Assembly: GCA_043725085.1 (NCBI GenBank)
Contig: JAYSLY010000007.1
Location: 1,471 to 65,470, forward strand
DNA length: 64,000 nucleotides
Source: a bacterium
GTDB lineage: Bacteria; Patescibacteriota; Minisyncoccia; Moranbacterales; UBA2206
Direction: 5' to 3'
How positions within the stretch are numbered: the first letter of the stretch is position 1; each line of letters begins with the position of its first letter. The translations under genes and the position numbers were made by a program. The notes beneath the pieces were generated by a model. The model saw nothing but the letters and a program-made list of their open reading frames with translations. It ran no database searches and was not told the origin of the DNA. This document shows positions 47,246-63,900 of this stretch, piece after piece.

Positions 47246-48394
47246 TTAGAGGGTTATGCGATAGAGTTTTCCGTCTATTCTGTTTGTGAAAAACAAAATA
47301 CTTTCGTTAATGTCCAGAAAGGGATTTGCCGCGTCATATTTTTCGGTGATTTTATTTAAATCAATGATGCGATTTTTTTCTCCGGTGGTTGTGTTAATTT
47401 TCCAAAATGTATCGGTAGTGTGGAATTTTTCTTGGTCGTAGTCATTTGGCATGATGGCAGACGCGGGGACTTCTCCGGGCATTGCGCAATAAACAGTCAC
47501 ATTATCCTTGGCCCATGTGCATTTGGAGGTAAGTGAGGGAAAATCGAGATTCTTAAATTCACCGCCATTGGAATTGATCGTGGCAAGTTGGATTTTTGTG
47601 GAGCCTTTAGTGTCGGAATAGCTGACAAGAGCCATTGTTCCATCTTTATTCCAAAGATAGTCTGCTCCGAAAATGCCTTTTAGAAGGCTTTTTTCTTCCC
47701 CGCCAATTAGGGGAACTGATTTTAGGGTGGTTTCAAAGAAAGAATCGGGCTTGTTCCAAAAAGAAACTAAGCTACTTTTCGGGATTTGCGCAATCGAAAC
47801 ATTGCGAAAATCGATATCAGCCAATTTTGTCCAATTGGTTCCGTCCGGATCAGAGATGTTTAGGGTTCTTTTTTTGGTGGCAGCGTCGTAGTATTTGTAG
47901 AAAATACGGTTACTGCTATTTTGCCAGGCGATTTCGTCTACATTTTTCTTAAGCGGTGTGCTTTGTAGCGTGGTGTAGTCGTAGGAATAAAACTTTGTCG
48001 CTCCGGCACTCATAAATTTTGTGATTACTTTATTTTTGTCCGGTGACCACGAAACATCAGAAATCCCAATTAGCTCTTTGTCGGAAAAGGTTCTTTTGTT
48101 GTTGCCATCAAAATCAATCTGGTAGACTCGCCCGCTATTTTTGGAATAATATTTGATAGCATCACTGCCGCTGGCAAGTGTCGGGGAAAGCACGGCTTCA
48201 TCGGAAATGGCGGTTATGGGGTCGGTGCTGACCTTTGGTGGAATCTGGGGAGCGACAATTGTCGGAGCTTTTATTTCCGGGGCCTGAGCGACTTCCGTTG
48301 GTTTTCTAAACGCTAAATTATAGACACCAAAAAACAGCAGTGCAACGCAAAAAAGCGCAAGAGAAATAAAAAAGATTTTTTTGTTGAGAGGCAT
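47246..48394 (-). CDS. membrane-anchored beta-propeller (TolB-like) repeat protein
   Basis: N-terminal TM helix. Repeated D..G.....F motifs. Confidence 0.4.
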   Translation of the reverse strand: MPLNKKIFFISLALFCVALLFFGVYNLAFRKPTEVAQAPEIKAPTIVAPQIPPKVSTDPITAISDEAVLSPTLASGSDAIKYYSKNSGRVYQIDFDGNNKRTFSDKELIGISDVSWSPDKNKVITKFMSAGATKFYSYDYTTLQSTPLKKNVDEIAWQNSSNRIFYKYYDAATKKRTLNISDPDGTNWTKLADIDFRNVSIAQIPKSSLVSFWNKPDSFFETTLKSVPLIGGEEKSLLKGIFGADYLWNKDGTMALVSYSDTKGSTKIQLATINSNGGEFKNLDFPSLTSKCTWAKDNVTVYCAMPGEVPASAIMPNDYDQEKFHTTDTFWKINTTTGEKNRIIDLNKITEKYDAANPFLDINESILFFTNRIDGKLYRITL

Positions 48395-48412
48395 GGATTA
48401 GATTAGTTTAAT

Positions 48413-49279
48413 TTAATATCCTCGTTGACAATTATTGGTGCTGACATGCACATGATTTGCTTCACTTGACTCATCTTTGATGGATTTGTCTGATATGCCA
48501 CATTCTTTGGCAGCAGTCGTTATGTTTCCGACAGTTAAGCCTGTTGTGGTGGAAATGTCGACTGCTTCTGATTTTCCTCCGGCCACACCTCCATAATGGC
48601 AAGAACCTTTTTCGTGAGCACATGGCGGTTTGGCGTAGCCGGTGCCGCTGCACTTATCTAGTCCAGCGCTATCTGAAATGGAATTGATGGTCATTTTTGA
48701 TCCGAGCTTGTTTCTCAGACAAACAATGAGTGTTTGCAAAGAAGAAGACGCATCGCCCATTTGAGAATCAATGCCTGATTGAAATTTGAAATTTTCTTTG
48801 GAATAGCCGGATATTGGCGCTTCAGTGGAGGGAGTCAGGGAGCCAACGGATGAGCTGGTGGTTGAGCAAGAAAAGCTGGTCCAGCTTTTTCCTTCAATGC
48901 CAAAGGCACCTTTATCGCCTTCTTTTTTAGCGGAAAATACCCAAAAAACAGTGTTGATAATGAGCCAGGCACCAAGCATTAAGGAAAATCCAATCACAAC
49001 ACTTTGGATAAAACCTTTGGCTTTTGTGGCAAAAGTAGGGTCACCGGAGGAAACGACATACATGATGCCGGCGATGGATATGCCGGTTATGGAAATGGTT
49101 ACAATTATTTTCATTCCCCAATTGATGAGACCTTGAATTCCGATGAGAAAATGACAAAGCGTGCATGGGTCGGTTGCGCCAAGGCCGCAAGGAACGAGTC
49201 CACTGGCGGCATTAGCTTGAGAAAAGGTAAGAAGGAAAAGAGAGAAGCTGAAAAATAGAAAGAGGATTTTTTTTAGCAT
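48413..49279 (-). CDS. secreted protein with pilin-like topology (signal peptide + two hydrophobic helices) fused to a LAS-type (M15/M23-like) metallopeptidase-like C-terminal domain
   Basis: N-terminal LVPCGLGATDPCTLCHFLIGIQGLINWGMKIIVTISITGISIAGIMYVV. C-terminal SCHYGGVA...AVDI and ANHVHVS (SxHxxGxA..D and HxH). Confidence 0.4.
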   Translation of the reverse strand: MLKKILFLFFSFSLFLLTFSQANAASGLVPCGLGATDPCTLCHFLIGIQGLINWGMKIIVTISITGISIAGIMYVVSSGDPTFATKAKGFIQSVVIGFSLMLGAWLIINTVFWVFSAKKEGDKGAFGIEGKSWTSFSCSTTSSSVGSLTPSTEAPISGYSKENFKFQSGIDSQMGDASSSLQTLIVCLRNKLGSKMTINSISDSAGLDKCSGTGYAKPPCAHEKGSCHYGGVAGGKSEAVDISTTTGLTVGNITTAAKECGISDKSIKDESSEANHVHVSTNNCQRGY

Positions 49280-49291
49280 AAAATTTTTTAA

Positions 49292-49741
49292 TTATCTGGG
49301 AAAAGCTTTTCCGTTGGGGCAAAAGCTGAGACCAAATTCTTGCCCGGCTAAATTATCATTGGCGAAACTGGAAACACGCAGGGAAACATTTAGTGAGCAG
49401 GCTTGGTTTTGGGTTATGTTGAGTAATTGCAAGAAAGCCGCTTCCGCCTTTATTCTGGCTGATGTAATATCTGCGCCTTTAATGTCAATCAGAAAACTTC
49501 TATCTTTGGTGCCAAAATCAAAATAGACGATATCATAGTCGGAAGTGCTTTGCGCTAGTGTATCTTGCGGAGACAATTTTTTCGCTTCAGGTGTCGTTTT
49601 TATGTTGTTGATTGGAAGGCTGCCCTGGGTGGTTTGGACTGAAATAGTTGCTCCTTCCTTGGGAAAAAACACAGAATAAAGCCAATAAGAGGCAATAATA
49701 ATTAGCACGATACCAACAATGACGTAGATATTTTTTTTCAT
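49292..49741 (-). CDS. small membrane-anchored secreted protein (149 aa)
   Basis: Single N-terminal TM helix. Confidence 0.4.
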   Translation of the reverse strand: MKKNIYVIVGIVLIIIASYWLYSVFFPKEGATISVQTTQGSLPINNIKTTPEAKKLSPQDTLAQSTSDYDIVYFDFGTKDRSFLIDIKGADITSARIKAEAAFLQLLNITQNQACSLNVSLRVSSFANDNLAGQEFGLSFCPNGKAFPR

Positions 49742-49771
49742 AGCAGTAAGGTTATAATTTAATTTTTTTGT

Positions 49772-50869
49772 TTATAGCCCGCATTTATTGGCTGTGTTTA
49801 CCCAAGGGCTTGTATTGGAACCATTAGAGCCACTACTTGGCAAGTTGCAAGCGGCTGTGATGTTCATTTGACCATTTTTCAGTTTATTAAGACATTCTGT
49901 GTATTTTGCCATGTCCTTAACTTCGCAATCGCGCTTTTTGCAATAGGATAATCCGCTAGAATTAGTGACTGTTTCCAGGCAGGTGCCTTGAGGTCCACTA
50001 CCATTTACAGTGAAAATATCAGATCCTTTGCATCCGATAGATCCAGCGCTCGTGATCATATTTATTTGAAATAAGCCAATTGAAAATGCGTTTCCATCTT
50101 TGCATCTGTCAGTGCAATTGTCTGTGGTACTCGCGCATTTATTTGGGTTTCCATTCGATTCGACACTGCAAATTTTTGACATTTTTTCAGCATTTGATCC
50201 AAAGCAACCAGTTTGCAGATTAGTTATGGTGCAATCTCCCCCGGGTACTGGTGTGCAAGTTCCTGTACTGGTTCCGTTATTGCCAGTATTGCTACTACTA
50301 TTACTACCAGTAGTGTCATAGTTATTACCGCCGATTTGCACTAGAGCGGGGTTGATTGTATAGAGAAGGATGTATGACGTGAGAGCGAGGATTACTCCGG
50401 CAATCGCATCAACGATGTAGCCCTTGGCAGTGCCCATTGTGCTGGTATTTCCGCCACTTGTGATATACATGAAAGCACCGATAGAGATCATAAGCATAGC
50501 GGCGATGCCAACGGTCCAGAGGCCAAACTGATAAAGTTGCAAAATATATGCGGTACTATCCCCGGTTTTAGGGAATCCGGGAATTGCTTCCATGGGGACA
50601 TAGGGGAAGGCTTGTTGTGGTTGGTTTTGTGTTGTAGTTGCTGGCTTCTGGTATTGTTTGCATCCAGAGATAGTGGCACATGTCCCTGTTGTTTTTGAGC
50701 TATACCCAGATTGGCAACCAGTGGAAGAATTGCTATCAATGCAAACATCTCCAGTGCTAGGAACGCAACACCAGGGAGTGCTTGATTCTGCATAAGCATT
50801 TTTGACTAGAAAAAAATCAAAAAGTAAAACCGCAGCCAGGATTAAGGATAATTTTAGGTTATTTTTCAT
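49772..50869 (-). CDS. secreted protein with pilin-like two-helix segment fused to a lytic transglycosylase (SLT/VirB1-like) domain
   Basis: Signal peptide and a Cys-rich region. Hydrophobic pair AYILQLYQFGLWTVGIAAMLMISIGAFMYI...GVILALTSYILLY. SLT motifs CSVESNGNPN and AFSIGLFQINMITSAG. Confidence 0.5.
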   Translation of the reverse strand: MKNNLKLSLILAAVLLFDFFLVKNAYAESSTPWCCVPSTGDVCIDSNSSTGCQSGYSSKTTGTCATISGCKQYQKPATTTQNQPQQAFPYVPMEAIPGFPKTGDSTAYILQLYQFGLWTVGIAAMLMISIGAFMYITSGGNTSTMGTAKGYIVDAIAGVILALTSYILLYTINPALVQIGGNNYDTTGSNSSSNTGNNGTSTGTCTPVPGGDCTITNLQTGCFGSNAEKMSKICSVESNGNPNKCASTTDNCTDRCKDGNAFSIGLFQINMITSAGSIGCKGSDIFTVNGSGPQGTCLETVTNSSGLSYCKKRDCEVKDMAKYTECLNKLKNGQMNITAACNLPSSGSNGSNTSPWVNTANKCGL

Positions 50870-50884
50870 TTATATATCTCTGTT

Positions 50885-53761
50885 TTAAAATTCATCGAAC
50901 GTTCTTTTTGGTAGCACGAAAAAAATGATTTTTATGGCGAGAATGATAGCGAGTCCGGAAAGGGCCATGCGGAAAAGAAAGGCGAAATAGCTGGGGATGC
51001 CGGAAGAAACAGTCGCAAGAACTTTTCCGGGTGAAGTTTCTTTTTGAGAAAGCGTTGTGTCATTGCTTACCATTTCAATTTCAATGTTATGCGTCAATTT
51101 CTTCTCATAGAATTCATTATAGGTGACATCCCAATATTTGTTAAGCATTTGGCGCATCGAGTTGGTGGGTGTGAAGGTGGTGGAGAGAGAGATGATATAT
51201 TTTTCACCAACATTTTTTGGCGGAAGGGTTAATCTTCCAAAGTGCGCCGTGTCAATCATGTATCCATAGTTCCTGGCATTGTCGGCGTTGATAGTTGTGC
51301 CATCAATATTCCATTGATAGGGACAATTTGATGATTGACCGGCAGTGTCATTGAAATTTTCTGTTCCAACTGTTCCGGAAAAGACAGGTGTTAGCACTAT
51401 ATTATTTCCCGTTCGTGCCTGAAAACTTGTGTCGCTGTGATCAGGATAGGACGTGTTGTTGAAATCTTTATATTCCCCCAAAACTAAACCGAGACAAGTT
51501 GGCTTGCCCGAAGTGTCCTGGTTATCCTTTCCTTCCGGCACAATTTTTACGTCCGGCGATGAGATTTTGAAAACTTTGCTTAGATCGATTCTTTTTCCGG
51601 TTGTTTTGTTGAGTGCGGACAGGCTGATATTATATTGATCACCAATGTTTTTTAGGACAGGAAAATAGATGGTAGTTCCTGTTTTGCCACTAGCATCAAA
51701 ACAGTCTTTGAAATGTTCGTCAGCGCAAGTCAATGGCGCTCCGTCAACTGTCCAAAGAAAATCAGTGTAGGTTGGGTTTGCTGCAGTTCCATTGTCAATT
51801 TTCATTCCAATCAGTTCATCTTTTGCTACTTCGCAGACTGCTGCTGGCACCGGGCTAGTTGTTATTGAGCCATCGGATTTTTTTTCCGGTATGTCTGCAA
51901 GGCATCTTTCATCACTGGTTCCGCTGGCGTTAATTTCTGCGGTAGGCGTTGCATCGGATTGATTGAGGTAGACAAGGCCTGCTGTATAAACCTTAATATA
52001 TTCTCCGGAGGAAGAAATTGGCGTGGTGATGTCGGCGTGACCTTCTCTTTCCGCTCCTCCTCCGGCGAGAGTTTCTTTTACAGTCACTTTTACTTTGAGA
52101 TATTTTTTCGGGCTTGGGAAATTTAAATTGAATTTAAGTGTATTAATCCCCAATCCGGAGGTTTGCGTGGATCCATCTAGGGCAGTTTTTGGAAGTGGAT
52201 TTCCCCAGTCGTCCGGATTTGCTTCATCGCTGGCATAAACTTCCCATGTGTAGCTGAGGTAGGCGGCGTTGTTGGCGTTAGGAACTGAAGCGGTGAGGCT
52301 GAGCGTATCACCGTTTTTACTGGAAGAGGTATCGTTGATTGGATTTTCCGGTAAATATTTGAGTGAAACGTCAAGTTTTTCTTTCGCGCCTCCTCCCTCG
52401 GTGGGTGTTACGAGATTTTCATAAAGACAATCATTCAAGTTATTAATATCAAAATTAGTCATTTTGATTGACTTGTATTCATCGGCTCCTGAGCAGCCGG
52501 TAGTGCCACTTTCCAGTTCGCTCGGAGAGCAGGTGTGGCTTGTGATTGTTTCATTCAGTTGAGTCTCGCTCAGTAATTGTGGGTCTGTACCGACATAGGT
52601 CACGACAGTGTGGATGGTGGTAGTTGTTCTGATTGTGGCATTGTCATTAACTTGGTTTGTGTTAGGAGCAATATCCTCAACTGTTTTTGTGGAAATGGTT
52701 GTGGTGTAGTCTGTGGCGGCGGGAGGCGGAACGCTTGTGCTTCCGGAAATTGCTTTTGTGTTTGGGTAGGTCGTGGTGGTGTCTTCGGTTGTTTTTGGAT
52801 AATCGGAATTACCTGTGCCTGCTTTGATATTATTTTTGTCGCCACATGTATTTTTAGTGAATGCCCACATAGTTTCATAGGATGAGTCAGATATTTGGGT
52901 TGGTTGAATTGAAACGCCTTCTACGGCAACGCCGACCTGATCTCCTGCCGAATAGGAAAAGGAAAAAACATTTTCACCTAAGCCAACAATATTGGCTTCA
53001 TCGGGATGGCCTGTTCCGGCCGTGTCTTTATTTTTTGGATTAGTGTGCCAAAATTTTTCCTCGTTAGCGTCAAATTCATTATCACCGGTTGTATGTCCGG
53101 GAGCGTTGGGGAAAAGATGGTGGCACGCTATTTCATTGTCATCGCCACTTTTAACATCATGCACGAAGCAGTGTTCTTTTTTACCTCGTTGGTCATCTCC
53201 GCCAAAAGGGGCACTGTATCCATCATTGTCAGTGTCACTGGAGTAATCGGCGTTTTGCCAGTCGAAATCATTACTAGCCAGTATTCGCATAGCTTTCATT
53301 TTGTAGTCTTCGATATCAACCTCACCGTCTCCATTGAGATCACAGGCCTTAAAATCATCACTTTTTTTGTAGTCAGAAGTGTATTTGTCGTGGTCTAGTT
53401 TGTCATCAAAGCATCTGGCGCTTTTGATATACCACGTGAAATAGAGGTTTTCCGGCATATTCATGAAGTAGGATGGCGTGGTGGTGACAGTCACTTTTTC
53501 CCCCGGCACTGGGTCGACCGGATCAAAGGTGAGTGAAACAGTGGGGGGCGTGACTTTTTTTCTGGCAACATTGACTGATTTCATCGTGTTTTGTATCTCG
53601 TCTTTGTTGACACCAAAAGCGCCCATGACGGTGTCCATAAGCGCCATTGGATTACCCAAGGCAACGCCCAATAGATCGGCGTGAGCCGGCGCGGCGGTCA
53701 GTGAAAAAATATTGATGATAACCAAAAAAGTGATTATGGCTTTTTTAATTCTTGTTTTCAT
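50885..53761 (-). CDS. large (~958 aa) surface protein with a signal peptide, acidic Ca-binding-like repeats and a C-terminal TM anchor
   Basis: Start at the ATG giving MKTRIKKAIITFLVIINIFSLTAAPAHA. DLNGDGEVDIEDY and DTDNDGYSAPFGGDD repeats. C-terminal LSGLAIILAIKIIFFVL. The ORF-track start at 53899 is an upstream extension. Confidence 0.5.
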   Translation of the reverse strand: MKTRIKKAIITFLVIINIFSLTAAPAHADLLGVALGNPMALMDTVMGAFGVNKDEIQNTMKSVNVARKKVTPPTVSLTFDPVDPVPGEKVTVTTTPSYFMNMPENLYFTWYIKSARCFDDKLDHDKYTSDYKKSDDFKACDLNGDGEVDIEDYKMKAMRILASNDFDWQNADYSSDTDNDGYSAPFGGDDQRGKKEHCFVHDVKSGDDNEIACHHLFPNAPGHTTGDNEFDANEEKFWHTNPKNKDTAGTGHPDEANIVGLGENVFSFSYSAGDQVGVAVEGVSIQPTQISDSSYETMWAFTKNTCGDKNNIKAGTGNSDYPKTTEDTTTTYPNTKAISGSTSVPPPAATDYTTTISTKTVEDIAPNTNQVNDNATIRTTTTIHTVVTYVGTDPQLLSETQLNETITSHTCSPSELESGTTGCSGADEYKSIKMTNFDINNLNDCLYENLVTPTEGGGAKEKLDVSLKYLPENPINDTSSSKNGDTLSLTASVPNANNAAYLSYTWEVYASDEANPDDWGNPLPKTALDGSTQTSGLGINTLKFNLNFPSPKKYLKVKVTVKETLAGGGAEREGHADITTPISSSGEYIKVYTAGLVYLNQSDATPTAEINASGTSDERCLADIPEKKSDGSITTSPVPAAVCEVAKDELIGMKIDNGTAANPTYTDFLWTVDGAPLTCADEHFKDCFDASGKTGTTIYFPVLKNIGDQYNISLSALNKTTGKRIDLSKVFKISSPDVKIVPEGKDNQDTSGKPTCLGLVLGEYKDFNNTSYPDHSDTSFQARTGNNIVLTPVFSGTVGTENFNDTAGQSSNCPYQWNIDGTTINADNARNYGYMIDTAHFGRLTLPPKNVGEKYIISLSTTFTPTNSMRQMLNKYWDVTYNEFYEKKLTHNIEIEMVSNDTTLSQKETSPGKVLATVSSGIPSYFAFLFRMALSGLAIILAIKIIFFVLPKRTFDEF

Positions 53762-56972: not shown

Positions 56973-57659
56973 TCATTTGAGTTCCATCTTCTCCGTATCG
57001 ATATAGCCTTTAGTGTCGAAGATGGTCGGATTGTAGGCATTAAACAGCAGTTCAATCAGCTCGGGGGTTTTCAGGGGAATGATTTTGACGCCAATGCCGG
57101 AAAGTCCGGCGGTGAGGTGATCGACTCTTTGATAAAGTTGGCTTTTGTATGTTTCAAATGTTTCTCTTTTTTCCAGGATGCTTCTTTTGGGATTCAGCAT
57201 GTTGGAAAGATTGCTCAGAAAACTTCTGTCTTGATTTTCCATGGGAGAAAATGGCACGACTATGTAGAAAGTTTTGTCCATAATGTCAGACATGGAGACC
57301 AATTGGGTGATAAAATTTTTATATTCTGAAATTTGCAAACGCATCAGTTCAGTTTTTTGTTGTTTTTCTTTGGTAGTTAGAAAATCAATATAGGTGTCGA
57401 TGTTCAATTTCCGTGAGCTAATAAGAACTTGCATCGGAAAGTCAACTGAGTTGAGGAAATTTTGATATTGGCTGATGATAGCTTCTTGTTCATCGGTGGC
57501 CTTGAGTTCAAAATTGATCGCGGAAACAGCTAAAACTGCCCTCATCGAGCCGTTTTTAAGCACAATCACATCTTCTTTGACTTCTGCCACATCAAGATAT
57601 TGCTGGGTCGGCGAAGCGGCGGATTGTTTGGCGAGCTTTTGAGAATATAGTTTTTCCAT
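56973..57659 (-). CDS. VirB4 N-terminal domain (CagE/TrbE/VirB family) encoded as a separate ORF
   Basis: QYLDVAEVKEDVIVLKNGSMRAVLAVSAINFELKATDEQEAIISQYQNFLNSV aligns with the canonical VirB4 N-terminus (IVLLEDGSIMSIARIDGVAFELEEIEMRNARCRAFNTLMRNI). Confidence 0.6.
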   Translation of the reverse strand: MEKLYSQKLAKQSAASPTQQYLDVAEVKEDVIVLKNGSMRAVLAVSAINFELKATDEQEAIISQYQNFLNSVDFPMQVLISSRKLNIDTYIDFLTTKEKQQKTELMRLQISEYKNFITQLVSMSDIMDKTFYIVVPFSPMENQDRSFLSNLSNMLNPKRSILEKRETFETYKSQLYQRVDHLTAGLSGIGVKIIPLKTPELIELLFNAYNPTIFDTKGYIDTEKMELK

Positions 57660-57665: not shown

Positions 57666-58067
57666 TTATTTTTTCCTTATGTCTAATAATTGCGAAATAT
57701 CAGCGACTTTTTGAGCGTCAAATTTCTTTTTTGTAACGACTGAAGCCGCATTTTCTTTTTTGTCGATGGTGGTTTTTTGAATTTTTTCCGTGACGCGGCG
57801 CCAGATATACATTTTTGGACGAGTAGCAAAAAGGACTGAGGAAAGAATGAATTTAATCAGCGGTTGGTTGTAGGGGCGATAAAAGGCCAATGCTCCAAAA
57901 ATGACGGCGATGATAATGGCGGAAAGAATGAAAGCGGATTGGTCGAGTGTTCCATAGCAAATCAAAAGCACAACTCCTCCGGCGGCTAACCAGCCAAGTT
58001 GTCTGGCGGTCAGCGGACCGACGATTTTGTCTTCAATATCGATAAATTGGGGGACGTTGAAAATCAT
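57666..58067 (-). CDS. PrgI-family (VirB3-like) small membrane protein
   Basis: NVPQFIDIEDKIVGPLTARQLGWLAAGGVV followed by two TM helices. Confidence 0.55.
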   Translation of the reverse strand: MIFNVPQFIDIEDKIVGPLTARQLGWLAAGGVVLLICYGTLDQSAFILSAIIIAVIFGALAFYRPYNQPLIKFILSSVLFATRPKMYIWRRVTEKIQKTTIDKKENAASVVTKKKFDAQKVADISQLLDIRKK

Positions 58068-58069
58068 GA

Positions 58070-58128
58070 ATTTGAAATTTAAAATTAGAAATTTGAAATG
58101 AAATTTTAATTTCTAAATTTAAAACTGT
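58070..58128. repeat. AT-rich palindromic repeat (copy D)
   Basis: gaatttgaaatttaaaattagaaatttgaaatgaaattttaatttctaaatttaaaa. Confidence 0.45.
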
Positions 58129-58130: not shown

Positions 58131-58505
58131 CTATTGGGTTTCTTTGTTTTCTTTCAGTGTCAGGGCTATTTTTGAAAATATCAATGTTAGTTCTTGTGCT
58201 TCTTTCCAGAGTTTTCTGCCTTCTTCTTTGTGTTCAGGATTGGATTTTGCAAGGAGTTCTAGCCAATATTTTGTTTCTTTGCACTCCTTTTTGCAGATAT
58301 AGATCTTATTGTGGAAATCCTTTTTTGAGCTTGCTCCGTTAGCTTCGCAGTAATTCGCGCCTATGCTGGTCGCAGAACGAACCAGTTGGCTCATCAGTGG
58401 AGTGTTTGTGATGTCTCTGCTTAATTTTTTAATAAAAACAATTACCTCTTCACTAAACTTCAGAGTTCTGGACTCTAAATCATACTTTTCCGAATTTTTT
58501 GTCAT
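58131..58505 (-). CDS. four-helix-bundle protein (TIGR02436-type, formerly '23S rRNA intervening-sequence protein')
   Basis: SATSIGANYCEANGASSKKDFHNKIYICKKECKETKYWLELL. Confidence 0.6.
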   Translation of the reverse strand: MTKNSEKYDLESRTLKFSEEVIVFIKKLSRDITNTPLMSQLVRSATSIGANYCEANGASSKKDFHNKIYICKKECKETKYWLELLAKSNPEHKEEGRKLWKEAQELTLIFSKIALTLKENKETQ

Positions 58506-58507: not shown

Positions 58508-58545
58508 AATAATTTAAATTTTGATATTGATTTAAAATTTCAAAT
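58508..58545. repeat. AT-rich palindromic repeat (copy E)
   Basis: aatttaaattttgatattgatttaaaatttcaaatttaaaatt. Confidence 0.4.
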
Positions 58546-59718
58546 TTAAAATTGGTCATTGTTCTTTAAGTCTACCACATTTTTTGGCATTGGTCTTGGG
58601 GTGGAATAATTAATTCTGGCAATTGGCGTGGGAGCGGGATAATTTTTTTGAAGCGGCTTTGGAATTTCCGGTGATTTTTCCGTGGAGAATGTTTGGGGTG
58701 ATGAAAATTTAATATTCTCTGCCGTGTTTCCATTTCTCAAGGCTTCTTTTTGGGGCAAATCTCTTCTCCAGGCGGCAATTCTTTCCTCGTCAGTTTGAAA
58801 TCTTTGCTGGCCTCCCGAAATGGTTTGTCTTGTTGGGTAGTTTCCTTGGCCTCTTTGGATTTCTGCCGGCTCGAAATTATTGCGAGTGGCACCTGGATTC
58901 ATTGTTGGTCTTTGCGGAATTTCTCTTTTTTCCGGTGCGGCAAAAACAACTTGCTTGGTGTTACCGTTGATTGAGATTGGTGTTTTTTCTTCAAATGATT
59001 TGAGAATGGCAGTTAGTTTTTCGCGGTCTTGACTGGAAAGCGGTCGGCCATTTTCACTTTTGAAAAGATAGTTTCCGCGTACAATCGGATCATGATTGCT
59101 GATGCCAACGGTGAAAGTGTAGTCAGAAAGCCAGTTTTTGATTGACGGACGCACCGGTTCGGGGAAAACCTTGAGTTTGATGTGATTTGAAGTGATGAGC
59201 TGCTCGCCTAGTTCAGGATATTTTTCTAAGGCAAGTTCGATTGGCATATTTTCCAATTGAGATTGCTGTTTTCTTATTATTTCATCTTCTGCTCTTTTTT
59301 CTTTTATTTTCTCTCTTTCTTCTTCTAAAATCCATGGCTCTAGCTCTAAAACTTTTTTCCAGGCCTCGCTTTCGGAAATCAGTGGGTTGGATTTCTTGTT
59401 GGACCATTCTTCCAGTAAGCTTAGTGAATCTTTGAAAAAATCAGGAAAACGGGCAAAAATTCGTTGGTTTATTTCATAGGCAATGCCAAAAATAACCTGT
59501 TCTGGTTGTTTTAGATCCTTGGCGATTATCGCAGGGTAATCCTTTAGTTTTAATTCGCCGATAAAAATGAGTGCGATTGGGTAGGATAATGTTTTTATTA
59601 CTTCTTCGCTTAATCCATAGATAAAACAGGTCTTTTCAATTTCATATCGTGGCGCATCAGATATAATAAATTCTCTCAGTGTATTTGGTAATTTATTTCT
59701 TTTTTCTAAATAGCTCAT
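58546..59718 (-). CDS. hypothetical protein with a Pro/Gln-rich C-terminal tail (390 aa)
   Basis: Long ORF with no recognised domain. Embedded in the T4SS-like cluster. Confidence 0.45.
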   Translation of the reverse strand: MSYLEKRNKLPNTLREFIISDAPRYEIEKTCFIYGLSEEVIKTLSYPIALIFIGELKLKDYPAIIAKDLKQPEQVIFGIAYEINQRIFARFPDFFKDSLSLLEEWSNKKSNPLISESEAWKKVLELEPWILEEEREKIKEKRAEDEIIRKQQSQLENMPIELALEKYPELGEQLITSNHIKLKVFPEPVRPSIKNWLSDYTFTVGISNHDPIVRGNYLFKSENGRPLSSQDREKLTAILKSFEEKTPISINGNTKQVVFAAPEKREIPQRPTMNPGATRNNFEPAEIQRGQGNYPTRQTISGGQQRFQTDEERIAAWRRDLPQKEALRNGNTAENIKFSSPQTFSTEKSPEIPKPLQKNYPAPTPIARINYSTPRPMPKNVVDLKNNDQF

Positions 59719-59732: not shown

Positions 59733-61658
59733 TTAATTGTGAATATGCATTAGATCATGGTCTCTGCCTGCTAGGCGAGAAATATTTTGTGCTGTTGGAC
59801 TATTTTGTTGCGTGTTTTGCATTTGATGATTTAACTCTCTTTGTGCGGCTTCATCATCCATGTTTAAGACAATATTTTTGTATCTGTTCGTTCTTATGTT
59901 ATTGGCAATATCATCAGCGTAGTTTGTTATTGTGTTTGTGCTCATTCTTTTTGCCGTATCCTTGTCTAAGCGACTTATTATTTGTGTTCTCGAATCTTGG
60001 TCACCAGTTATTGATCCGTGGAATCCGCCAATTTGGGCAAAATGGGCCATTTGGACATTTCTATTTATTCTAAGTTGTTCAGGAGAGAGATTTGGATCAG
60101 CTGCATTAAGATTGGCAAAATTTCCAGCAATAGCTGCTAGAGAGGCGTCAATATTGTTTCCATGTGCAACGCTTTTGCCTCTAAGATCTTCAAGATCTTT
60201 GTTTGAAATAGCTTGTTCTTGAAAGGCCATTTGCATAAAATTTGTGTTTCCTAGTGTGTTGGCACTGAGTTTTTTTGCGTCGAATTGGTTACTCCTCATA
60301 TGACTTTGCATCATTTCTTGCCAGCGCGCAGGGTCTGTTATGTGAGAAAAAGCCGCAACTGGATCGTAGGTCTTGACTTTATTGACTAATTGCATAAACA
60401 CCTGGCTAGTTTCTCCAAAAGCAGCTCTAACGTTATTTAAATCATTTTGTGTGGTCGCTCCAAGCTCAGCTAAGCGCTGAATGGCAGCTGCTCTTTCGTA
60501 TTGCGTTCCATTTGCTGCGATTCTTCTTAAATCAGCCTCAGAAGTATTATCAATATTAAGTCTTTCTTTTGTCTCCTTGATTCTTTTTAGTTGAGTCTGG
60601 TCAATGACATTTGGCACTGCGAATGGACCACTTCCGGCAATACGAGCTTCTCTTTCAGCTTGTCTGTCTGATCCAAGCAGTCCACTTTTTTTCCAATTAG
60701 TCCATTTTTGCTGGATTCCTCCTGGTACGCCAGTTTTTTTAGCGGCCCACCAAGCAGTCCTATGCGGTGCATTTCCAACCCACTTCATCATCTTTGTTCC
60801 CTGCCCCACTACCATACTGGCTCCGGCGATGCCGGAGCTTTGGGCTCTTTCGATGCCGATCCAAAGGATAACCAGCGGGAGAACAAAAAAAGAAATGGAT
60901 GAAACTGAGCTGCTCAAGGTGCCTCCATCGGCGGATAGTTTCAGGCCACCGGCGGAATCGGCTACGGCTATCATCATGCGATTAGCCAAAACCAGCATAA
61001 AAATCATAATCGGTCCGGCAAAACAATATTTCATAAATTCTTTCCACCAGCCACTGGCGGCGTTTGCCAGGTCTGTGCCGGGTAGAGTTGAGCCCAAAAA
61101 AGCAATCGGAGAGAAGATGATGAAAATAGTCAGGGCGATTGTTCTAATCACCAAAAGAACGGCAATTGTGAGCATGGTGATGGCAAACATGAAGGTGAAG
61201 ATAACAGCGGCGAGGAGAAAATAGGAGTCTGCTGTTTTCCCTTCGGCTCCATTGATTATGCCAAGTATGCCACTTTTTTCAACAATATTCCAAAATGAGC
61301 CATCTCCGCCAAGTTGATTGAGAAAGCCATACATGAAAATGTTGGACATGTCGATGATGAAACGGGCAATGGGGTAACTGAAATTGACCAAAAGAGCCAT
61401 AATAATCAGATTGATCAAGACCTTTTTATAGTTATAGTTCGTGCTGGCTTGAAAAATTGTGGCAAAAGCGGAAAACAGCAAAATCATGATAAGAGTTGTG
61501 TTGAAAAAATCACGCACAAAACGCCACATCGTGTAGACGGTCGGGTTGTCCATGACAGCGGTCATGTGTGATGGCACGATAATCCATTTGAAAAGGTTAT
61601 CGGCTGAGTAAAGTAGCGCACCGTCAAGTTTTAGAATAAGTCGAAGTATGTCGTCCAT
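59733..61658 (-). CDS. VirB6/TrbL-like polytopic T4SS membrane protein with a C-terminal soluble domain
   Basis: Six to seven TM helices in the N-terminal 400 aa, then a hydrophilic ~250-aa tail. Confidence 0.5.
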   Translation of the reverse strand: MDDILRLILKLDGALLYSADNLFKWIIVPSHMTAVMDNPTVYTMWRFVRDFFNTTLIMILLFSAFATIFQASTNYNYKKVLINLIIMALLVNFSYPIARFIIDMSNIFMYGFLNQLGGDGSFWNIVEKSGILGIINGAEGKTADSYFLLAAVIFTFMFAITMLTIAVLLVIRTIALTIFIIFSPIAFLGSTLPGTDLANAASGWWKEFMKYCFAGPIMIFMLVLANRMMIAVADSAGGLKLSADGGTLSSSVSSISFFVLPLVILWIGIERAQSSGIAGASMVVGQGTKMMKWVGNAPHRTAWWAAKKTGVPGGIQQKWTNWKKSGLLGSDRQAEREARIAGSGPFAVPNVIDQTQLKRIKETKERLNIDNTSEADLRRIAANGTQYERAAAIQRLAELGATTQNDLNNVRAAFGETSQVFMQLVNKVKTYDPVAAFSHITDPARWQEMMQSHMRSNQFDAKKLSANTLGNTNFMQMAFQEQAISNKDLEDLRGKSVAHGNNIDASLAAIAGNFANLNAADPNLSPEQLRINRNVQMAHFAQIGGFHGSITGDQDSRTQIISRLDKDTAKRMSTNTITNYADDIANNIRTNRYKNIVLNMDDEAAQRELNHQMQNTQQNSPTAQNISRLAGRDHDLMHIHN

Positions 61659-62707
61659 TATTTTTTATACAATGCTCCCGGGCCGTAGGCATTAACCTTT
61701 TTATTGACTTGTTGAACCGCTTTGTCGGTAACCTTGTTTACCTCGCGGTTCACCGCATTTTCCACTCCGGAAACAGTTTTACTTATTGCGCCGGAAATTG
61801 CCTTAGAAACAGTAGCGGCGACTAGCTCTCCAATACTTGTTGCGCTAGACATTGCCAAATTAGGCAAGTTATCAACATTCGCTTGCATTTGTTCAAAAAG
61901 GATGCCCGGTTTTTCCACTATCCCATTGACCTTTTCACTAATAAAGCCCGAATTGGAAGTAGCTTCTGTGGTGGCAACAGTTTGTTCTTGCTTTAGATTA
62001 TCTTGGTATATTTGGTCAACTTTCTCTTTAACAGCGGTTGGCTCTCCGTTGTCTATGTAGTCCGCGTAATTATTTATCATGGCAACAGTCGGACTGGTTA
62101 GTCCTTCGGGGAGTGTGAACAGTTCGCCTGGATCACCAGCGTAGGCTTGCCATTCCGGCGGATCGATGACTTTGATTTGGAGCATGTCACTGAGTCTTTG
62201 TTGGTAGCTTGATTCATCGGCATAAAGATCGGTTGCGTCTCCCAAAACCGCTTCTTTGCCAAAACCTTCTCCGGCAACCGTGCTGGCGCCCAAAACTGAA
62301 TTGGAGGCTTTTTTGTAGCTCGCACTGCCACGCCCGGACATTGCTCGACTGATGTAGTCATTGGCATAGCGTTGAGCATTTCTGGTTGGGTTGTCAATCA
62401 GATAGTCTTGCCAGTTAGTGATGAATCTGGCGCCATTTGAGGTTGTGCCGGAAATAAACCTGTCCATTTGTTTGGAAAGCATTTTGATGGCCGCTTGTTT
62501 CAAGGAACCCATAATCATGCCTTTAATTTGAGCGGAAATTTCTTCCATGCCTTGCTTCATTACTGCCGCCATCGGCTCTAGCCAGGCGTTTGCCGGTTTT
62601 GTGAAAATTGGAAAGCAGGAAAAAGATAGTGCAAAAAGTAGGACAAAAAAAATTTTTTTGCAAAAAGAAAATTTTTGTTTTTTTGGATTTTCTGGCATGG
62701 GTTTCAT
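61658..62707 (-). CDS. secreted hypothetical protein (signal peptide; possible T4SS periplasmic/surface component)
   Basis: N-terminal hydrophobic leader. Ala/Ser/Thr-rich. Confidence 0.4.
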   Translation of the reverse strand: MKPMPENPKKQKFSFCKKIFFVLLFALSFSCFPIFTKPANAWLEPMAAVMKQGMEEISAQIKGMIMGSLKQAAIKMLSKQMDRFISGTTSNGARFITNWQDYLIDNPTRNAQRYANDYISRAMSGRGSASYKKASNSVLGASTVAGEGFGKEAVLGDATDLYADESSYQQRLSDMLQIKVIDPPEWQAYAGDPGELFTLPEGLTSPTVAMINNYADYIDNGEPTAVKEKVDQIYQDNLKQEQTVATTEATSNSGFISEKVNGIVEKPGILFEQMQANVDNLPNLAMSSATSIGELVAATVSKAISGAISKTVSGVENAVNREVNKVTDKAVQQVNKKVNAYGPGALYKK

Positions 62708-62715
62708 GTTTTTTG

Positions 62716-62796
62716 TAGAGGCGAGGCATTGCCTCGACTAGAAAATAATGAACAAGGTGTAAACCAACGATACCTAGACGAGGCACTGCCTCGTCT
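62716..62796. promoter_or_regulatory. two near-identical GC-rich palindromes (CGAGGCAyTGCCTCG cores) about 52 bp apart in the intergenic region
   Basis: gtagaggcgaggcattgcctcgactag (62715-62741) and tagacgaggcactgcctcgtcta (62775-62797). Confidence 0.5.
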
Positions 62797-63900
62797 CTAC
62801 GGATTTGTTGTCGTGTCAGTTGTTGCGCTTGTTGTGGTAGTAGCGGCATTTAGCAAAGAGTTCAATTCATCTGAACTTTTTGGCGCGTCAATGCCGAAAC
62901 CCTCCAGTTTTTTCTGGACCGTTGCATCGTAGGTTAGGCCATATTCGGAAATTTTACTTTCAGCTTCAATGGAAAAATCAGAAAGAGCGGTGATAAATCC
63001 TTGTATTTTTGAAAGATTGGCGATTGAGCCCATCGGATCTTCTGGGTTAGATTGCAAAAGATTGCCCAAGTTTTCGGAATACATGGAAAAACGCAGAGCT
63101 TTAATGTGGATGGAAACCAGATCCTGGGGCACTTCAACCGCACGCAACTGCTCGACCACTTTCTTTTGACCGGTCATCAGGTCTTGCAAACCGGAAGCGC
63201 TCTGTGTTGTTATGGCGGTGGTGATTGTGCTTGTGAGCGTGGAAAACAGCTTGGTCGCGTCGGGGATTTTTGTGATTGGTTGGGGAGAATTGCTGGTGAG
63301 GATGTAGGCCATGGCGGAGAGATAGTCGAGGCAATCTTCTTTTTTCTTAGCCTTAGCTTTGTCGGCACTGAGATTTCCGTAATTTTGTTTTTTTATCTTG
63401 ATATCTTTTTCATTAACCTCAGGAAGATCATTGTCAGAAATGGTGCTCGGGGTCATTGTCTGATCAACTAATGTTTGCACGTCATCAAGAGAGACTTGCT
63501 TGTTGTCCGTAGTTGATTTTACGGCGAGGTCATTTATTTTTTGAGCAATATCGGTGGTGAGATTTTTTTGTGAAGCGTCGCCGAGCACTGCGCTATTTGG
63601 ATCGCTTGTCGTTCTTGTTCCGGTAAATCCCGGCAACTTGTCTCCCGGCGCTTTTTTCAAGGGGTCATAGCCACTCCTCACTTCGGCTCCATCGGAATAG
63701 CCATCGCCGTCTGTGTCAGGATTGTGCGGATCCGTACCATAAATTTTTTCTTCTTCATCGGAAAGGCCGTCTTGGTCGCTGTCCAAAAAAATGCTCTTAG
63801 TTCCAGCGGAAGTATTTTCGGCGCGCACATAAAAAGCGAAACTCAAAACAAGTAAGCTCGCGAGAACGAAAAAAGAGAGGCTAATATTTTTTATTTTCAT
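62797..63900 (-). CDS. secreted protein with thrombospondin-type-3-like Ca-binding repeats
   Basis: Signal peptide. DSDQDGLSDEEE, DPHNPDTDGDGYSDGAEV. Confidence 0.45.
   Translation of the reverse strand: MKIKNISLSFFVLASLLVLSFAFYVRAENTSAGTKSIFLDSDQDGLSDEEEKIYGTDPHNPDTDGDGYSDGAEVRSGYDPLKKAPGDKLPGFTGTRTTSDPNSAVLGDASQKNLTTDIAQKINDLAVKSTTDNKQVSLDDVQTLVDQTMTPSTISDNDLPEVNEKDIKIKKQNYGNLSADKAKAKKKEDCLDYLSAMAYILTSNSPQPITKIPDATKLFSTLTSTITTAITTQSASGLQDLMTGQKKVVEQLRAVEVPQDLVSIHIKALRFSMYSENLGNLLQSNPEDPMGSIANLSKIQGFITALSDFSIEAESKISEYGLTYDATVQKKLEGFGIDAPKSSDELNSLLNAATTTTSATTDTTTNP

Follow-up and report, generated by a model that had tools for sequence, protein, structure and literature searches.

A probable Patescibacteria-type type IV secretion system encoded beside oriC on a Moraniibacteriota chromosome

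The block at positions 47246–63900 of the window, the 64-kb stretch of DNA analysed here, very probably encodes a chromosomal Patescibacteria-type type IV secretion system (T4SS) that derives from monoderm (MPF_FATA-like) conjugation machinery and in which the DNA-transfer functions have been uncoupled. Its parts are a VirB4 motor split into TrsD and VirB4, a PrgI/VirB3 protein, an extended VirB6 and two proteins with VirB2-like pilin domains, one bearing a lytic transglycosylase and the other a zinc peptidase. Lineage-specific surface and membrane proteins complete the set, and all are arranged as a single co-directional unit beside oriC. The Moraniibacteriota block is a good but ordinary case of an already known T4SS class of ultrasmall Patescibacteria (CPR), which two studies describe across Patescibacteria (Quinonero-Coronel et al. 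2025, PMC12102498; Wang et al. 2023, PMC10633639). What is new is minor: the fusion of pilin and hydrolase domains, a cytoplasmic protein (g12) that is conserved but has no close fold match in the PDB, and a degenerate CPBP-like membrane protein.

The block contains 15 intact open reading frames, all on the minus strand, with intergenic gaps that range, by the ORF coordinates, from −4 to 89 nt, in agreement with the co-directional, closely spaced genes of the original prediction. The features are as follows, in the direction of transcription.

63909–63938, minus strand: candidate operon promoter, TTCACA-18 nt-TATAAT with TG (consensus match only)
62797–63900, minus strand: g15, secreted protein of 367 aa with bacterial thrombospondin type-3 (calcium-binding) repeats (Pfam TSP3_bac)
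61658–62707, minus strand: g14, N-terminally anchored/secreted helical protein of 349 aa (homologs)
59733–61658, minus strand: g13, extended VirB6/TrbL-like polytopic membrane protein (PF19590, syntenic orthologs)
58546–59718, minus strand: g12, conserved cytoplasmic protein of 390 aa (conserved gene order)
58131–58505, minus strand: g11, four-helix-bundle protein of the 23S rRNA-IVS / TIGR02436 family (PF05635, TIGR02436)
57666–58067, minus strand: g10, PrgI/VirB3-like small membrane protein (Pfam PrgI)
56973–57659, minus strand: g09, TrsD-like protein, the VirB4 N-terminal domain as its own gene (NCBIfam, PF26593)
55053–56897, minus strand: g08, VirB4 ATPase, end of the N-terminal domain plus P-loop motor (profile searches)
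54437–55006, minus strand: g07, membrane protein of 189 aa with a charged N-terminal coil and 3–4 transmembrane (TM) segments (TM prediction)
53758–54420, minus strand: g06, CPBP/Rce1-like polytopic membrane protein (Pfam Rce1-like)
50885–53761, minus strand: g05, surface protein of 958 aa (TM prediction, synteny)
49772–50869, minus strand: g04, pilin hairpin plus SLT-type lytic transglycosylase (Pfam, C-domain profile)
49292–49741, minus strand: g03, bitopic protein of 149 aa (TM prediction)
48413–49279, minus strand: g02, pilin hairpin plus Hedgehog/DD-peptidase (LAS) zinc-hydrolase domain (Pfam, C-domain profile)
47246–48394, minus strand: g01, N-terminally anchored protein of 382 aa with TolB-like beta-propeller repeats (NCBIfam)

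The promoter-like site matches 11 of 12 consensus positions, the best minus-strand match within the block, and ends 8 nt 5' of the ATG of the first gene, g15. The PrgI-TrsD-VirB4 order is kept in 78–80 of 81 loci. About 40 Moraniibacteriota loci carry the VirB6-like gene and g12 upstream of this trio and the CPBP-like and 958-aa proteins downstream of it; pilin-domain genes are linked to virB4 even in differently arranged loci (e.g. L017-L026).

The motor module is the most firmly assigned part. In Pfam, g08 matches P-loop_TraG (2.7e-29), AAA_10 (1.7e-11) and TraC_F_IV (7.4e-7); in NCBIfam it matches conju_CD1110 above the cut-off (1.6e-112, 377 bits versus 325; model positions 179–734 of 752), as expected of the predicted VirB4 ATPase. 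A weak match to CedB (1.8e-13, 50 bits) is far below that family's cut-off. The reference genomes contain 578 VirB4 relatives; the best 80 of the 578 are almost all labelled Patescibacteria, and the closest among these 80 (94% identity) come from Moraniibacteriota or from MAGs. A VirB4 of monoderm CD1110/MPF_FATA type, with nearest relatives all in Patescibacteria and mostly in Moraniibacteriota, supports the Gram-positive/CPR-type T4SS-like apparatus originally proposed. The reading of g09 as the VirB4 N-terminal domain is confirmed by its match to NCBIfam TrsD (5.8e-7) and its alignment with conju_CD1110 positions 2–121 and VirB4_plasma positions 94–233; the precomputed annotation assigns PF26593 TraC-like. 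TrsD has an ORF of its own in 77 of 77 related loci, which shows that a frameshift did not cause the TrsD/VirB4 split. The TrsD gene adjoins that of PrgI in 78 of 81 loci. The g10 protein, with two hydrophobic segments side by side, matches Pfam PrgI (4.1e-12, 46.9 bits versus a cut-off of 27), as had been predicted, and is expected to be the membrane partner of VirB4.

The VirB6-like protein g13 contains about 5–6 TM segments; the C-terminal part beyond them, about 370 aa long, is hydrophilic and variable. The window copy, below the gathering threshold on its own, gave no match in the local Pfam search. The predicted VirB6/TrbL identity was borne out indirectly, through PF19590 TrbL_3 in the precomputed annotation and Pfam TrbL matches in 5 of 33 syntenic orthologs (best 1e-9); W45, R49, D50 and N53 of the TM domain are invariant. 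The gene upstream, g14, has a stop codon that overlaps the VirB6-like gene at its start. The g14 protein has 37 homologs in Moraniibacteriota and Parcubacteria, all annotated as hypothetical; a PDB sequence search found no match, and its AF2 model (pLDDT 42.5) is unusable. The first gene, g15, encodes an N-terminal hydrophobic segment and TSP3_bac repeats (1.7e-15), and is an accessory gene present only in the nearest clade (13–14 of the related loci). In Moraniibacteriota, g12 always lies between the VirB6-like gene and PrgI. The four-helix-bundle assignment of g11 is correct (PF05635 1.2e-19, TIGR02436 2.9e-25). This gene occurs in only 6 of 81 loci, is missing from the closest relatives (L002-L006), and shows in the alignment as about 400 bp inserted between g12 and PrgI; it is a sporadic insertion, probably outside the machine.

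Two proteins previously described as wall hydrolases turn out to have a pilin hairpin in front of the enzyme. The g04 protein consists of a signal peptide, a Cys-rich segment, a VirB2-like pilin hairpin, a Gly/Ser/Asn linker and a C-terminal SLT-type domain. The predicted VirB1-like lytic transglycosylase is thus present, confined to the C-terminal third, but the hairpin in the N-terminal half had been overlooked. That half matches T4SS_pilin at 6.8e-4 in the window copy, below the Pfam gathering threshold, and 19 of 22 homologs match the family (best 1.8e-18). Homologs of g04 match SLT (1.3e-9) and SLT_3 (7.7e-9); against the PDB, the C-domain profile finds EmtA (9e-4, marginal) and EtgA (0.036), in alignments that bring the E-S and G-L-x-Q motifs into register. 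Judged from its sequence, g04 is the putative functional VirB1 equivalent. In g02, a signal peptide, a VirB2-like pilin hairpin of the CGxxxxxCTLC type and a Ser/Thr linker precede the zinc-hydrolase domain; the second cell-wall hydrolase of the original prediction holds for this C-terminal domain, with the front-half hairpin again missed. The window copy matches T4SS_pilin at 0.006, below the Pfam gathering threshold, and stand-alone pilins of the g02 type (144–149 aa) occur in L018-L020. The C-domain profile finds the Sonic hedgehog N-domain in the PDB (0.007, marginal) with the H-x-D and HxH zinc-ligand residues aligned, and H71, D84, E113, H119 and H121 of the domain are invariant. The pilin-domain profile also reaches proteins of 130–150 aa with both PF18895 and PF04956 (TrbC/VirB2). 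The putative enzyme functions of g04 and g02 rest mainly on conserved catalytic motifs, the PDB profile matches being marginal; the likely pilin domains of both, like the likely VirB6 identity of g13, lean on orthologs and profiles.

The remaining genes downstream of virB4 encode surface and membrane proteins. The g05 protein runs from a signal peptide through an ectodomain of about 890 aa to a TM anchor at the C-terminus (TM segments 5–28 and 922–955); the gene call of the public assembly likewise gives 958 aa. It is lineage-specific, kept 3' of virB4 and syntenic in about 40 loci, and it matched nothing in Pfam, family or PDB searches with the single sequence or a profile. Its description as a calcium-binding surface protein stands for the surface location; the calcium binding is weaker than first described, a putative property read by eye from DxNxDG/DxDxDG motifs. 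Among the conserved features of g05 are Cys residues and the motifs CDxNxDG and DxDxDGY; the Pfam-supported calcium-binding repeats lie in g15. The g06 protein, syntenic in about 40 loci, matches Pfam Rce1-like narrowly (1.2e-4, 22.8 bits versus a cut-off of 22.4). The catalytic motifs of the window copy are degenerate: it has SSFFFQG where the ortholog consensus is YExFFRG, and the motif-2 and motif-3 histidines are not conserved. No family was found for g07 in Pfam or NCBIfam profile searches, nor in Pfam for g03, a poorly conserved protein (4 related loci only) in which a TM segment at the N-terminus precedes about 120 aa of ectodomain. The last gene of the block, g01, is syntenic in 26 loci; its product has a TM segment at 1–30 and matches NCBIfam propeller_TolB at 1.9e-5, far below the family cut-off. 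No VirB8-like component was recognised in the block, and the searches yielded no role for five of the 15 proteins (g03, g05, g07, g12 and g14). The g07 protein is 34–37% identical to its copies in genomes whose VirB4 is 93–94% identical, and in the comparison with one relative, VirB4 (94%) and TrsD (89%) contrast with VirB6-like (41%), g07 (34%) and g04 (34%). Conserved cytoplasmic parts and fast-evolving membrane or exposed parts would fit a host-facing surface.

The chromosomal setting bears on a rival reading in which an ordinary integrative conjugative element (ICE) or integrated plasmid has its transfer module here and its relaxase, coupling protein and integrase outside the window. The VirB4 family match is of the conjugative-transposon type (conju_CD1110), and only 1.9 kb past the right window edge was inspected. 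In those 1.9 kb there is no VirD4, relaxase, integrase or tRNA gene; instead of the relaxase, VirD4 and integrase that would mark an ICE, a divergent UbiA prenyltransferase gene is found. Within the 64-kb window, no VirD4, relaxase or integrase was detected among the scanned ORFs (long ones not nested in others, nearly every one of 130 aa or more), upholding the predicted lack of coupling protein and relaxase, and there is no tRNA. The UbiA and Wzy/GT2 flanks are housekeeping genes syntenic in 13–18 related genomes at 43–75% protein identity, and cluster protein divergence tracks that of the flanking genes. The GC content of the block is similar to that of the remaining window, with no composition shift. 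The block lies 7–24 kb from dnaA (38105–39490), with rnpA at 40012 and a sign change in GC skew at 36–40 kb; proximity to dnaA/dnaN/rnpA/yidC recurs in distant relatives, the cluster adjoining jag-yidC-dnaA-dnaN in L067 and L076. According to PMC12102498, a relaxase is near only 15 of ~2,474 patescibacterial virB4 genes. Because VirD4, relaxase, integrase and tRNA are missing from the 64-kb window and the 1.9 kb beyond it, the flanks are syntenic housekeeping genes and dnaA is so close, the block is not regarded as an ICE, an origin that is highly improbable. The conserved chromosomal genes on both flanks, together with the missing transfer genes, support the non-conjugative role originally suggested.

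By analogy with established T4SSs, VirB4 would dock at the membrane via PrgI/VirB3 and VirB6 and power the extraction of Sec-inserted pilin hairpins from the membrane, giving an envelope-spanning conduit or a short pilus. The tethered glycosidase and peptidase would make local openings in peptidoglycan, that of the cell itself and perhaps also that of the host; large anchored surface proteins would contact the host, and macromolecules would then cross the epibiont-host interface through the machine. In a rough split, protein export or pilus-mediated contact is quite possibly its role, import of host nucleic acids or other macromolecules is somewhat less likely, and a role other than export, contact or import is unlikely. 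The literature discusses import of host macromolecules on an equal footing with the 'attachment or effector-delivery organelle' first suggested for this block. The same apparatus working in the opposite direction, as a ComB- or Ced-like importer of host DNA, RNA or other macromolecules that would supply nucleotides to an epibiont unable to make them, is possible if doubtful. The weak similarity of VirB4 to CedB, an ATPase of archaeal DNA import, points this way, as does the failure to find the DNA export parts (coupling protein and relaxase) in the 64-kb window. Import has been proposed in the literature on the grounds that in S. epibionticum comEC is dispensable and the T4SS essential (PMC11665869; PMC12102498); a 2026 preprint reports feeding on host RNA and tubular structures at the interface. 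However, VirB4 fits conjugative exporters better (CD1110 377 bits versus CedB 50 bits), the block yielded no recognisable component that binds nucleic acid or acts as a nuclease, and the sequence gives no sign of transport direction.

It is decidedly unlikely that translocation has been lost and the apparatus kept only to attach the cell to its host, as a pilus, an adhesin or an organelle that remodels the cell wall. In favour of this reading, the two pilin-domain proteins and two wall hydrolases account, together with four surface proteins that are anchored or secreted, for more than half of the block, no coupling protein was found in the window, and the tubular structures seen at the host interface in the 2026 preprint were proposed to be T4SS pili. 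Against this, the block keeps a VirB6-like channel protein together with the VirB4 motor, VirB4 at 94% identity to relatives versus about 35–55% for the surface parts, a retention compatible with a transport function without proving it. Type IV pili already give Patescibacteria adhesion (PMC12857230), and a PilB-like ATPase is encoded in the same 64-kb window.

Compared with the Gram-negative VirB/D4 systems (MPF_T), the block has VirB1, VirB3, VirB4 and VirB6 equivalents and shares the topology of VirB2/TrbC pilins, in which a two-helix hairpin comes after a signal peptide. In contrast to them, VirB5, B7, B9, B10 and B11 were not recognised, and the pilin hairpins are fused via flexible linkers to enzymes of about 130–190 aa. 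The T4SSs that lack a coupling protein (Bordetella Ptl, Brucella VirB) and those for DNA uptake (H. pylori ComB, Sulfolobales Ced) likewise have none in the cluster, and illustrate that protein export or DNA import by a T4SS is possible without a relaxase. These systems are diderm or archaeal with other envelope components, the sole direct likeness being the VirB4-CedB match. The MPF_FATA systems (pCF10 Prg/Pcf, pIP501 Tra, pGO1 Trs, C. difficile CTn2) are closer: the best VirB4 match is CD1110 of CTn2, above cut-off, TrsD has its own gene, like that of pGO1, a PrgI is encoded, the VirB7/9/10 outer-membrane core is absent, and wall hydrolysis combines a glycosidase and a peptidase (SLT+CHAP in PrgK/TraG). 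Unlike these systems, the block shows no relaxase, VirD4/TcpA, PrgB-type adhesin or recognisable VirB8-like protein in the 64-kb window; it has VirB2-like pilins, which the Gram-positive systems lack, and is fixed in the chromosome, whereas theirs are on mobile elements.

The closest likeness is to the Patescibacteria T4SS, as set out in PMC12102498 and, for Southlakia epibionticum SEML1_0006-0019, in PMC10633639. The component set in PMC12102498 (VirB4, a separate TrsD, PrgI/VirB3, VirB6 and PF18895 VirB2-like pilins beside virB4) is that of the block, and a glycosidase and a peptidase likewise lie near virB4. The missing relaxase and the near-origin position both appear in these accounts: PMC12102498 describes chromosomal systems with no relaxase, a coupling protein (T4CP) rarely near virB4, and proximity to dnaA/dnaN/rnpA in Paceibacteria. 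The SEML1_0006-0019 cluster is essential (Wang et al. 2023, PMC10633639), T4SS and pilins being required for epibiotic growth of S. epibionticum (PMC10633639; PMC12857230). A term search of the available parts of the published accounts returned no mention of a CPBP/CAAX-like protein or of pilin-enzyme fusions, and g12, the 958-aa protein and the TolB-like propeller protein are not named there. Set against the systems as described in those parts, the block adds lineage-specific partners, namely g12, the degenerate CPBP-like protein, the anchored protein of 958 aa and the propeller protein resembling TolB. In place of the six small pilins arrayed in Saccharibacteria, the block has two pilin-domain genes only, both with C-terminal enzyme domains.

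The block at 47246–63900 contains 15 intact open reading frames (ORFs), every one on the minus strand and with spacing from a 4-nt overlap up to 89 nt, as the original prediction of co-directional genes with short gaps had it; the same ORFs are called in the public assembly. The predicted apparatus resembling a type IV secretion system (T4SS) was confirmed, with VirB4, TrsD and PrgI recognized by profile and VirB6 through its orthologs.

Genes of the block, from first (g15) to last (g01)
62797–63900, minus strand: g15, secreted protein with TSP3 calcium-binding repeats
61658–62707, minus strand: g14, anchored helical protein
59733–61658, minus strand: g13, VirB6/TrbL-like protein
58546–59718, minus strand: g12, cytoplasmic protein
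58131–58505, minus strand: g11, four-helix-bundle gene, TIGR02436 / 23S rRNA-IVS protein family
57666–58067, minus strand: g10, PrgI/VirB3
56973–57659, minus strand: g09, TrsD-like ORF
55053–56897, minus strand: g08, VirB4
54437–55006, minus strand: g07, small polytopic protein
53758–54420, minus strand: g06, CPBP/Rce1-like protein, Pfam match just at threshold
50885–53761, minus strand: g05, 958-aa protein with signal peptide and C-terminal anchor
49772–50869, minus strand: g04, 365-aa fusion of a pilin hairpin and a predicted lytic transglycosylase
49292–49741, minus strand: g03, small bitopic protein
48413–49279, minus strand: g02, 288-aa fusion of a pilin hairpin and a predicted zinc hydrolase
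47246–48394, minus strand: g01, anchored protein, weak propeller repeats of the TolB type (NCBIfam)

The VirB4 protein matches Pfam P-loop_TraG (2.7e-29), AAA_10 and TraC_F_IV, and scores 377 bits against the 325-bit cut-off of the NCBIfam equivalog conju_CD1110, covering model positions 179–734 of 752; it is the sole T4SS-type P-loop protein among the window ORFs scanned. The ORF upstream of virB4, which carries a precomputed TraC-like label and had been taken for the VirB4 N-terminal domain, matches NCBIfam TrsD (5.8e-7) and positions 2–121 of the same VirB4 model. Judged by these alignments, the two genes jointly are one predicted VirB4. A frameshift or pseudogene as the origin of the split is ruled out: in 77 of 77 related loci, those in which the limits of both could be set, TrsD and VirB4 are separate ORFs, so the split is ancestral. 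PrgI/VirB3, adjoining the virB4 region, matches Pfam PrgI above the gathering score (4.1e-12). The VirB6/TrbL-like protein has five to six hydrophobic segments followed by a hydrophilic tail of ∼370 aa. Its assignment was upheld by a precomputed TrbL_3 match and by syntenic orthologs, 5 of 33 of which match Pfam TrbL (best 1e-9); the window copy alone has no local Pfam match, and the family profile returned nothing useful from PDB sequences. No Pfam or NCBIfam match to the VirB7/VirB9/VirB10 outer-membrane core or the VirB11 ATPase was found among the 15 block proteins, and no VirB8-like candidate was identified in the block, with g12 and g14 covered by structure prediction.

The two proteins predicted to be cell-wall hydrolases, g04 and g02, turned out to be more than that: the enzyme domains were borne out, and both proteins also carry N-terminal VirB2-like pilin hairpins. 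They share a layout of signal peptide, two-helix hairpin, a linker rich in Gly, Ser, Asn and Thr, and enzyme domain. The hairpins of the window copies match Pfam T4SS_pilin (PF18895) below the gathering score (6.8e-4 for g04 and 0.006 for g02), and 19 of 22 homologs match it, at best with 1.8e-18. The pilin-family profile extends to pilins of 130–150 aa with both PF18895 and PF04956 (TrbC/VirB2), including Saccharibacteria proteins named TrbC/VirB2 by NCBI, and stand-alone pilins of the same type (144–149 aa) are present in three related loci (L018–L020). The window proteins, with their C-terminal enzymes and lengths of 288 and 365 aa, depart from the plain TrbC/VirB2 form of ∼100–150 aa with signal peptide and hairpin only. 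Fusions of PF18895 to PF18896 or PF01464 are present in many database proteins; the accessible portions of PMC12102498 and of related Patescibacteria T4SS literature yielded no mention of pilin–enzyme fusions.

A profile built from ten orthologs of the g04 C-domain finds EmtA, a lytic transglycosylase (9e-4), and EtgA, a transglycosylase of type III secretion (0.036), with the catalytic E-S and G-L-x-Q motifs aligned; E33-S34 is nearly invariant and Q64 invariant, and these align to the EmtA catalytic region. Single g04 homologs match SLT (1.3e-9) or SLT_3 (7.7e-9). The domain is a predicted SLT (family 1) lytic transglycosylase with motifs of the VirB1/PrgK type, E-S and then G-L-(M/F)-Q. For g02, a profile of eleven C-domains gives a marginal match (E 0.007) to the zinc-binding Hedgehog N-domain (Shh-N), in which S-C-H-Y-G-G...A-V-D aligns to SLHYEGRAVD and H-V-H-V-S to HIHCS. 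The zinc-ligand positions H71, D84, H119 and H121 are invariant, and their order, H...D then H-x-H, is that of LAS hydrolases. This domain is a predicted zinc hydrolase of the Hedgehog/DD-peptidase (LAS) fold.

In the reference-genome collection, VirB4 has relatives at 578 places. Nearly all of the 80 best are from Patescibacteria, and the closest among them (94% identity) are from Moraniibacteriota or MAGs. When the 15 block proteins were compared by tblastn with 81 related loci, PrgI-TrsD-VirB4 was present in 78–80 of them. About 40 have the VirB6-like protein and g12 upstream and the CPBP-like and 958-aa proteins downstream, about 20 have the pilin-hydrolases and the propeller protein, and only the nearest 13–14 have the two most upstream genes. 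Identity to the nearest relative is 94% for VirB4 and 89% for TrsD, and falls to 41% for the VirB6-like protein and 34% for both g07 and the SLT fusion. The motor is conserved; the membrane and exposed parts are fast-diverging.

Among the remaining genes, g12 belongs to a family of 654 clusters at 50% identity (E≤1e-30) that has no Pfam domain. Its residues 1–265 are predicted with pLDDT above 95; its profile returned nothing useful from PDB sequences, and no close match was found among solved structures. A VirB5-like fold considered for g14 found no support: the AF2 model (32 sequences) has a pLDDT of 42.5, and the g14 profile found no match among PDB sequences. The signal peptide and C-terminal anchor of the 958-aa protein agree with the surface protein that had been proposed; the calcium binding attributed to it is suggested only by DxNxDG-type motifs, and the protein has no family match and no PDB match, profile search included. 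In g06 the window copy reads SSFFFQG where orthologs have YExFFRG, so that the catalytic Glu/Arg motif is gone. The CPBP motifs EExxxR, FxxxH and HxxxN/D are absent from it, and the conserved histidines are missing across the family. An active CPBP protease processing the pilins is thus not supported.

The four-helix-bundle gene g11 is ruled out as a part of the T4SS. Of the 81 related loci only 6 have it, in differing places; the closest relatives lack it, and in them the flanking genes lie 82 nt apart. In the window it forms a ∼400-bp insertion between g12 and PrgI whose arms (58083–58123 and 58513–58553) are 41 nt long, AT-rich and 76% complementary; copies of this type lie at different positions within the T4SS cluster of 5 other genomes. 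The varying positions and the absence from the nearest relatives suggest a small gene that is mobile or often acquired. A role as Avd of a diversity-generating retroelement was considered, and no reverse transcriptase was found among the window ORFs scanned. On its sequence distribution, g11 is a putative sporadic insertion and no machine component.

Several intergenic gaps of the block are filled by the heptad AATTTSA, repeated in tandem in short arrays (2.7–8.3 copies), and a candidate promoter precedes the first gene.

Candidate regulatory features
63938–63909, minus strand: candidate promoter TTCACA-18-TATAAT with TG extension, just upstream of g15, the strongest sigma-70-like match on the minus strand
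55014–55045, window: AATTTSA array
56907–56973, window: AATTTSA array
58069–58124, window: AATTTSA array
58530–58553, window: AATTTSA array
41730–41748, window: AATTTSA array
9894–9925, related locus L002: heptad array
8546–8579, related locus L002: heptad array

The pattern AAATTTSAAATTT has 12 matches against 2.7 expected, a number reached by 0 of 100 shuffles. In the block the arrays directly precede four genes, g07, VirB4, PrgI and the four-helix-bundle gene, and no Shine-Dalgarno sequence is visible ahead of these four start codons. L002 has this heptad in its TrsD-VirB4 gap and another, (TTCATGC)n, in its PrgI gap. Their role could be in translation initiation, as an AU-rich region, or that of an internal promoter or of a binding array for a regulator. 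Only 8 nt separate the −10 hexamer of the candidate promoter from the g15 ATG (63900–63938); the operon mRNA is therefore possibly leaderless or nearly so.

The window is chromosomal, containing dnaN, dnaA, rnpA, yidC, jag, polA, ruvABC and holA (DNA polymerase III delta subunit), as well as isoprenoid genes, a PBP gene and a PilB-like ATPase gene.

Genes of the replication region
36666–37826: dnaN
38105–39490: dnaA
40012–40374: rnpA

From rnpA to the start of the block it is 7.2 kb, and the GC skew changes sign at 36–40 kb. On its upstream side a divergent UbiA prenyltransferase gene lies directly past the window edge; downstream, the genes that face the block convergently are two Wzy_C genes, two GT2 genes and one flippase gene. 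Both flanks are syntenic in 13–18 related genomes, and in two distant relatives (loci L067 and L076) the cluster abuts jag-yidC-dnaA-dnaN. These observations bear on whether the block is an integrative conjugative element, the reading that an adjacent relaxase, VirD4 and integrase would have favored. The scan covered the window's long non-nested ORFs, nearly every one of 130 aa or more, together with 1.9 kb beyond the window. No relaxase (MOB) family was matched in the scanned ORFs of the 64 kb or in the 1.9 kb beyond, and an oriT is not recognizable without a relaxase family. Among the scanned window ORFs there was no T4SS-DNA_transf or TraG-D match to indicate a VirD4/TcpA-type coupling protein, and no integrase, and the 1.9 kb beyond likewise gave no coupling protein; neither tRNA nor rRNA nor any further Rfam family was matched in the 64-kb window. 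With these parts missing from the ORFs scanned and the flanks syntenic, an integrative conjugative element is ruled out, and the CPR-type, non-conjugative reading is supported, also by the patescibacterial origin of the relatives.

Transcription of the 16.6-kb operon runs toward the presumed origin; going by the skew, it lies on the lagging strand and meets replication head-on. L067 and L076 have the cluster in the same orientation relative to dnaA. This orientation could be relevant to a gene-dosage idea in the literature and to how fast the exposed components evolve. Several other loci of the window are worth recording. A 1006-aa protein (21161–24181) has two stretches matching the T2SSE (PilB/GspE-type) ATPase (E 5.5e-227) and an MshEN domain, and resembles a type IV pilus ATPase in tandem or fused form. 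At 29780–33695, three ATP-grasp ligases (RimK / sugar-transfer-associated) come after a 7TM_transglut membrane protein, and one of the three is a fusion with a zinc-protease-like domain; the cluster appears to be a peptide-ligation module. An ORF6N-domain protein (3038–3556) lies amid housekeeping genes, as do a TrmB-like protein and the AbiEii nucleotidyltransferase toxin that follows it (8533–10033), a pair of the type IV toxin-antitoxin or abortive-infection kind. The 688-aa protein at 26333–28399, which has lamin-tail (LTD) and PKD domains, is likely one more surface protein.

General knowledge of T4SSs suggests how the apparatus might work. The VirB4/TrsD motor would dock on PrgI and VirB6, the pilin hairpins would be pulled from the membrane and then assembled, the tethered enzymes would open the wall, and the surface proteins would touch the host. 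We also entertain, as an unlikely extension, that the pilins are covalent carriers of the lytic transglycosylase and zinc peptidase rather than plain structural subunits, that the T4SS builds, or bears at its end, a filament or anchor armed with these enzymes and cutting the host wall, and that g12 stands in for the missing coupling protein as a substrate receptor.

The T4SS of Patescibacteria belongs to a small set of machines with a demonstrated essential role in epibiotic life, in bacteria that are very abundant and mostly uncultured. By Tn-seq, Wang et al. 2023 found the T4SS and its pilins to be essential when S. epibionticum grows epibiotically, the one organism for which this requirement is known, and they noted that coupling and relaxase proteins are missing (PMC10633639). 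The function is described as unsettled in reviews, with effector delivery and host nucleic acid import both proposed (PMC11665869, PMC12857230), and a 2026 preprint describes host-RNA feeding and tubular structures at a host interface. For Moraniibacteriota the locus is a clean example, complete and clearly bounded, that separates the universal parts (PrgI-TrsD-VirB4) from lineage-specific, fast-evolving ones, and it offers three experimental handles: the pilin-hydrolase fusions, g12 and the catalytically degenerate CPBP-like protein.

The block differs from conjugative T4SSs and integrative conjugative elements, whose relaxase, coupling protein, integrase and tRNA target were not found at it, and from the Gram-negative VirB/D4 system (MPF_T), whose VirB7/VirB9/VirB10 core and VirB11 were not found among its 15 proteins. 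It is no new class, the system type being already published across Patescibacteria. Quinonero-Coronel et al. 2025 describe the same system across 2,474 patescibacterial virB4 genes, with VirB4 forming a clade related to MPF_FATA and with TrsD (of all T4SS parts the most abundant in Patescibacteria), PrgI/VirB3, VirB6 and PF18895 pilins nearby; VirB1 homologs accompany virB4 mainly in Paceibacteria, relaxases lie near virB4 in only 15 of the 2,474 cases, coupling proteins are rarely close, and in Paceibacteria and Microgenomatia the T4SS is often near dnaA, dnaN and rnpA (PMC12102498). The block shares with that system the MPF_FATA-related VirB4, separate TrsD, PrgI/VirB3, VirB6 and PF18895 pilins, likewise has no relaxase or coupling protein among the nearby ORFs scanned, and lies near dnaA, dnaN and rnpA. 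What it adds in detail is the predicted pilin-tethered SLT and LAS hydrolases, the degenerate CPBP-like protein, the widespread cytoplasmic g12 without a close solved-structure match, and the clear division of the components into conserved and fast-evolving ones. The pairing of a glycosidase with a peptidase has parallels: S. epibionticum likewise has both downstream of virB4, where they are essential, according to PMC12102498, and in Gram-positive conjugation PrgK/TraG likewise supply a glycosidase and a peptidase.
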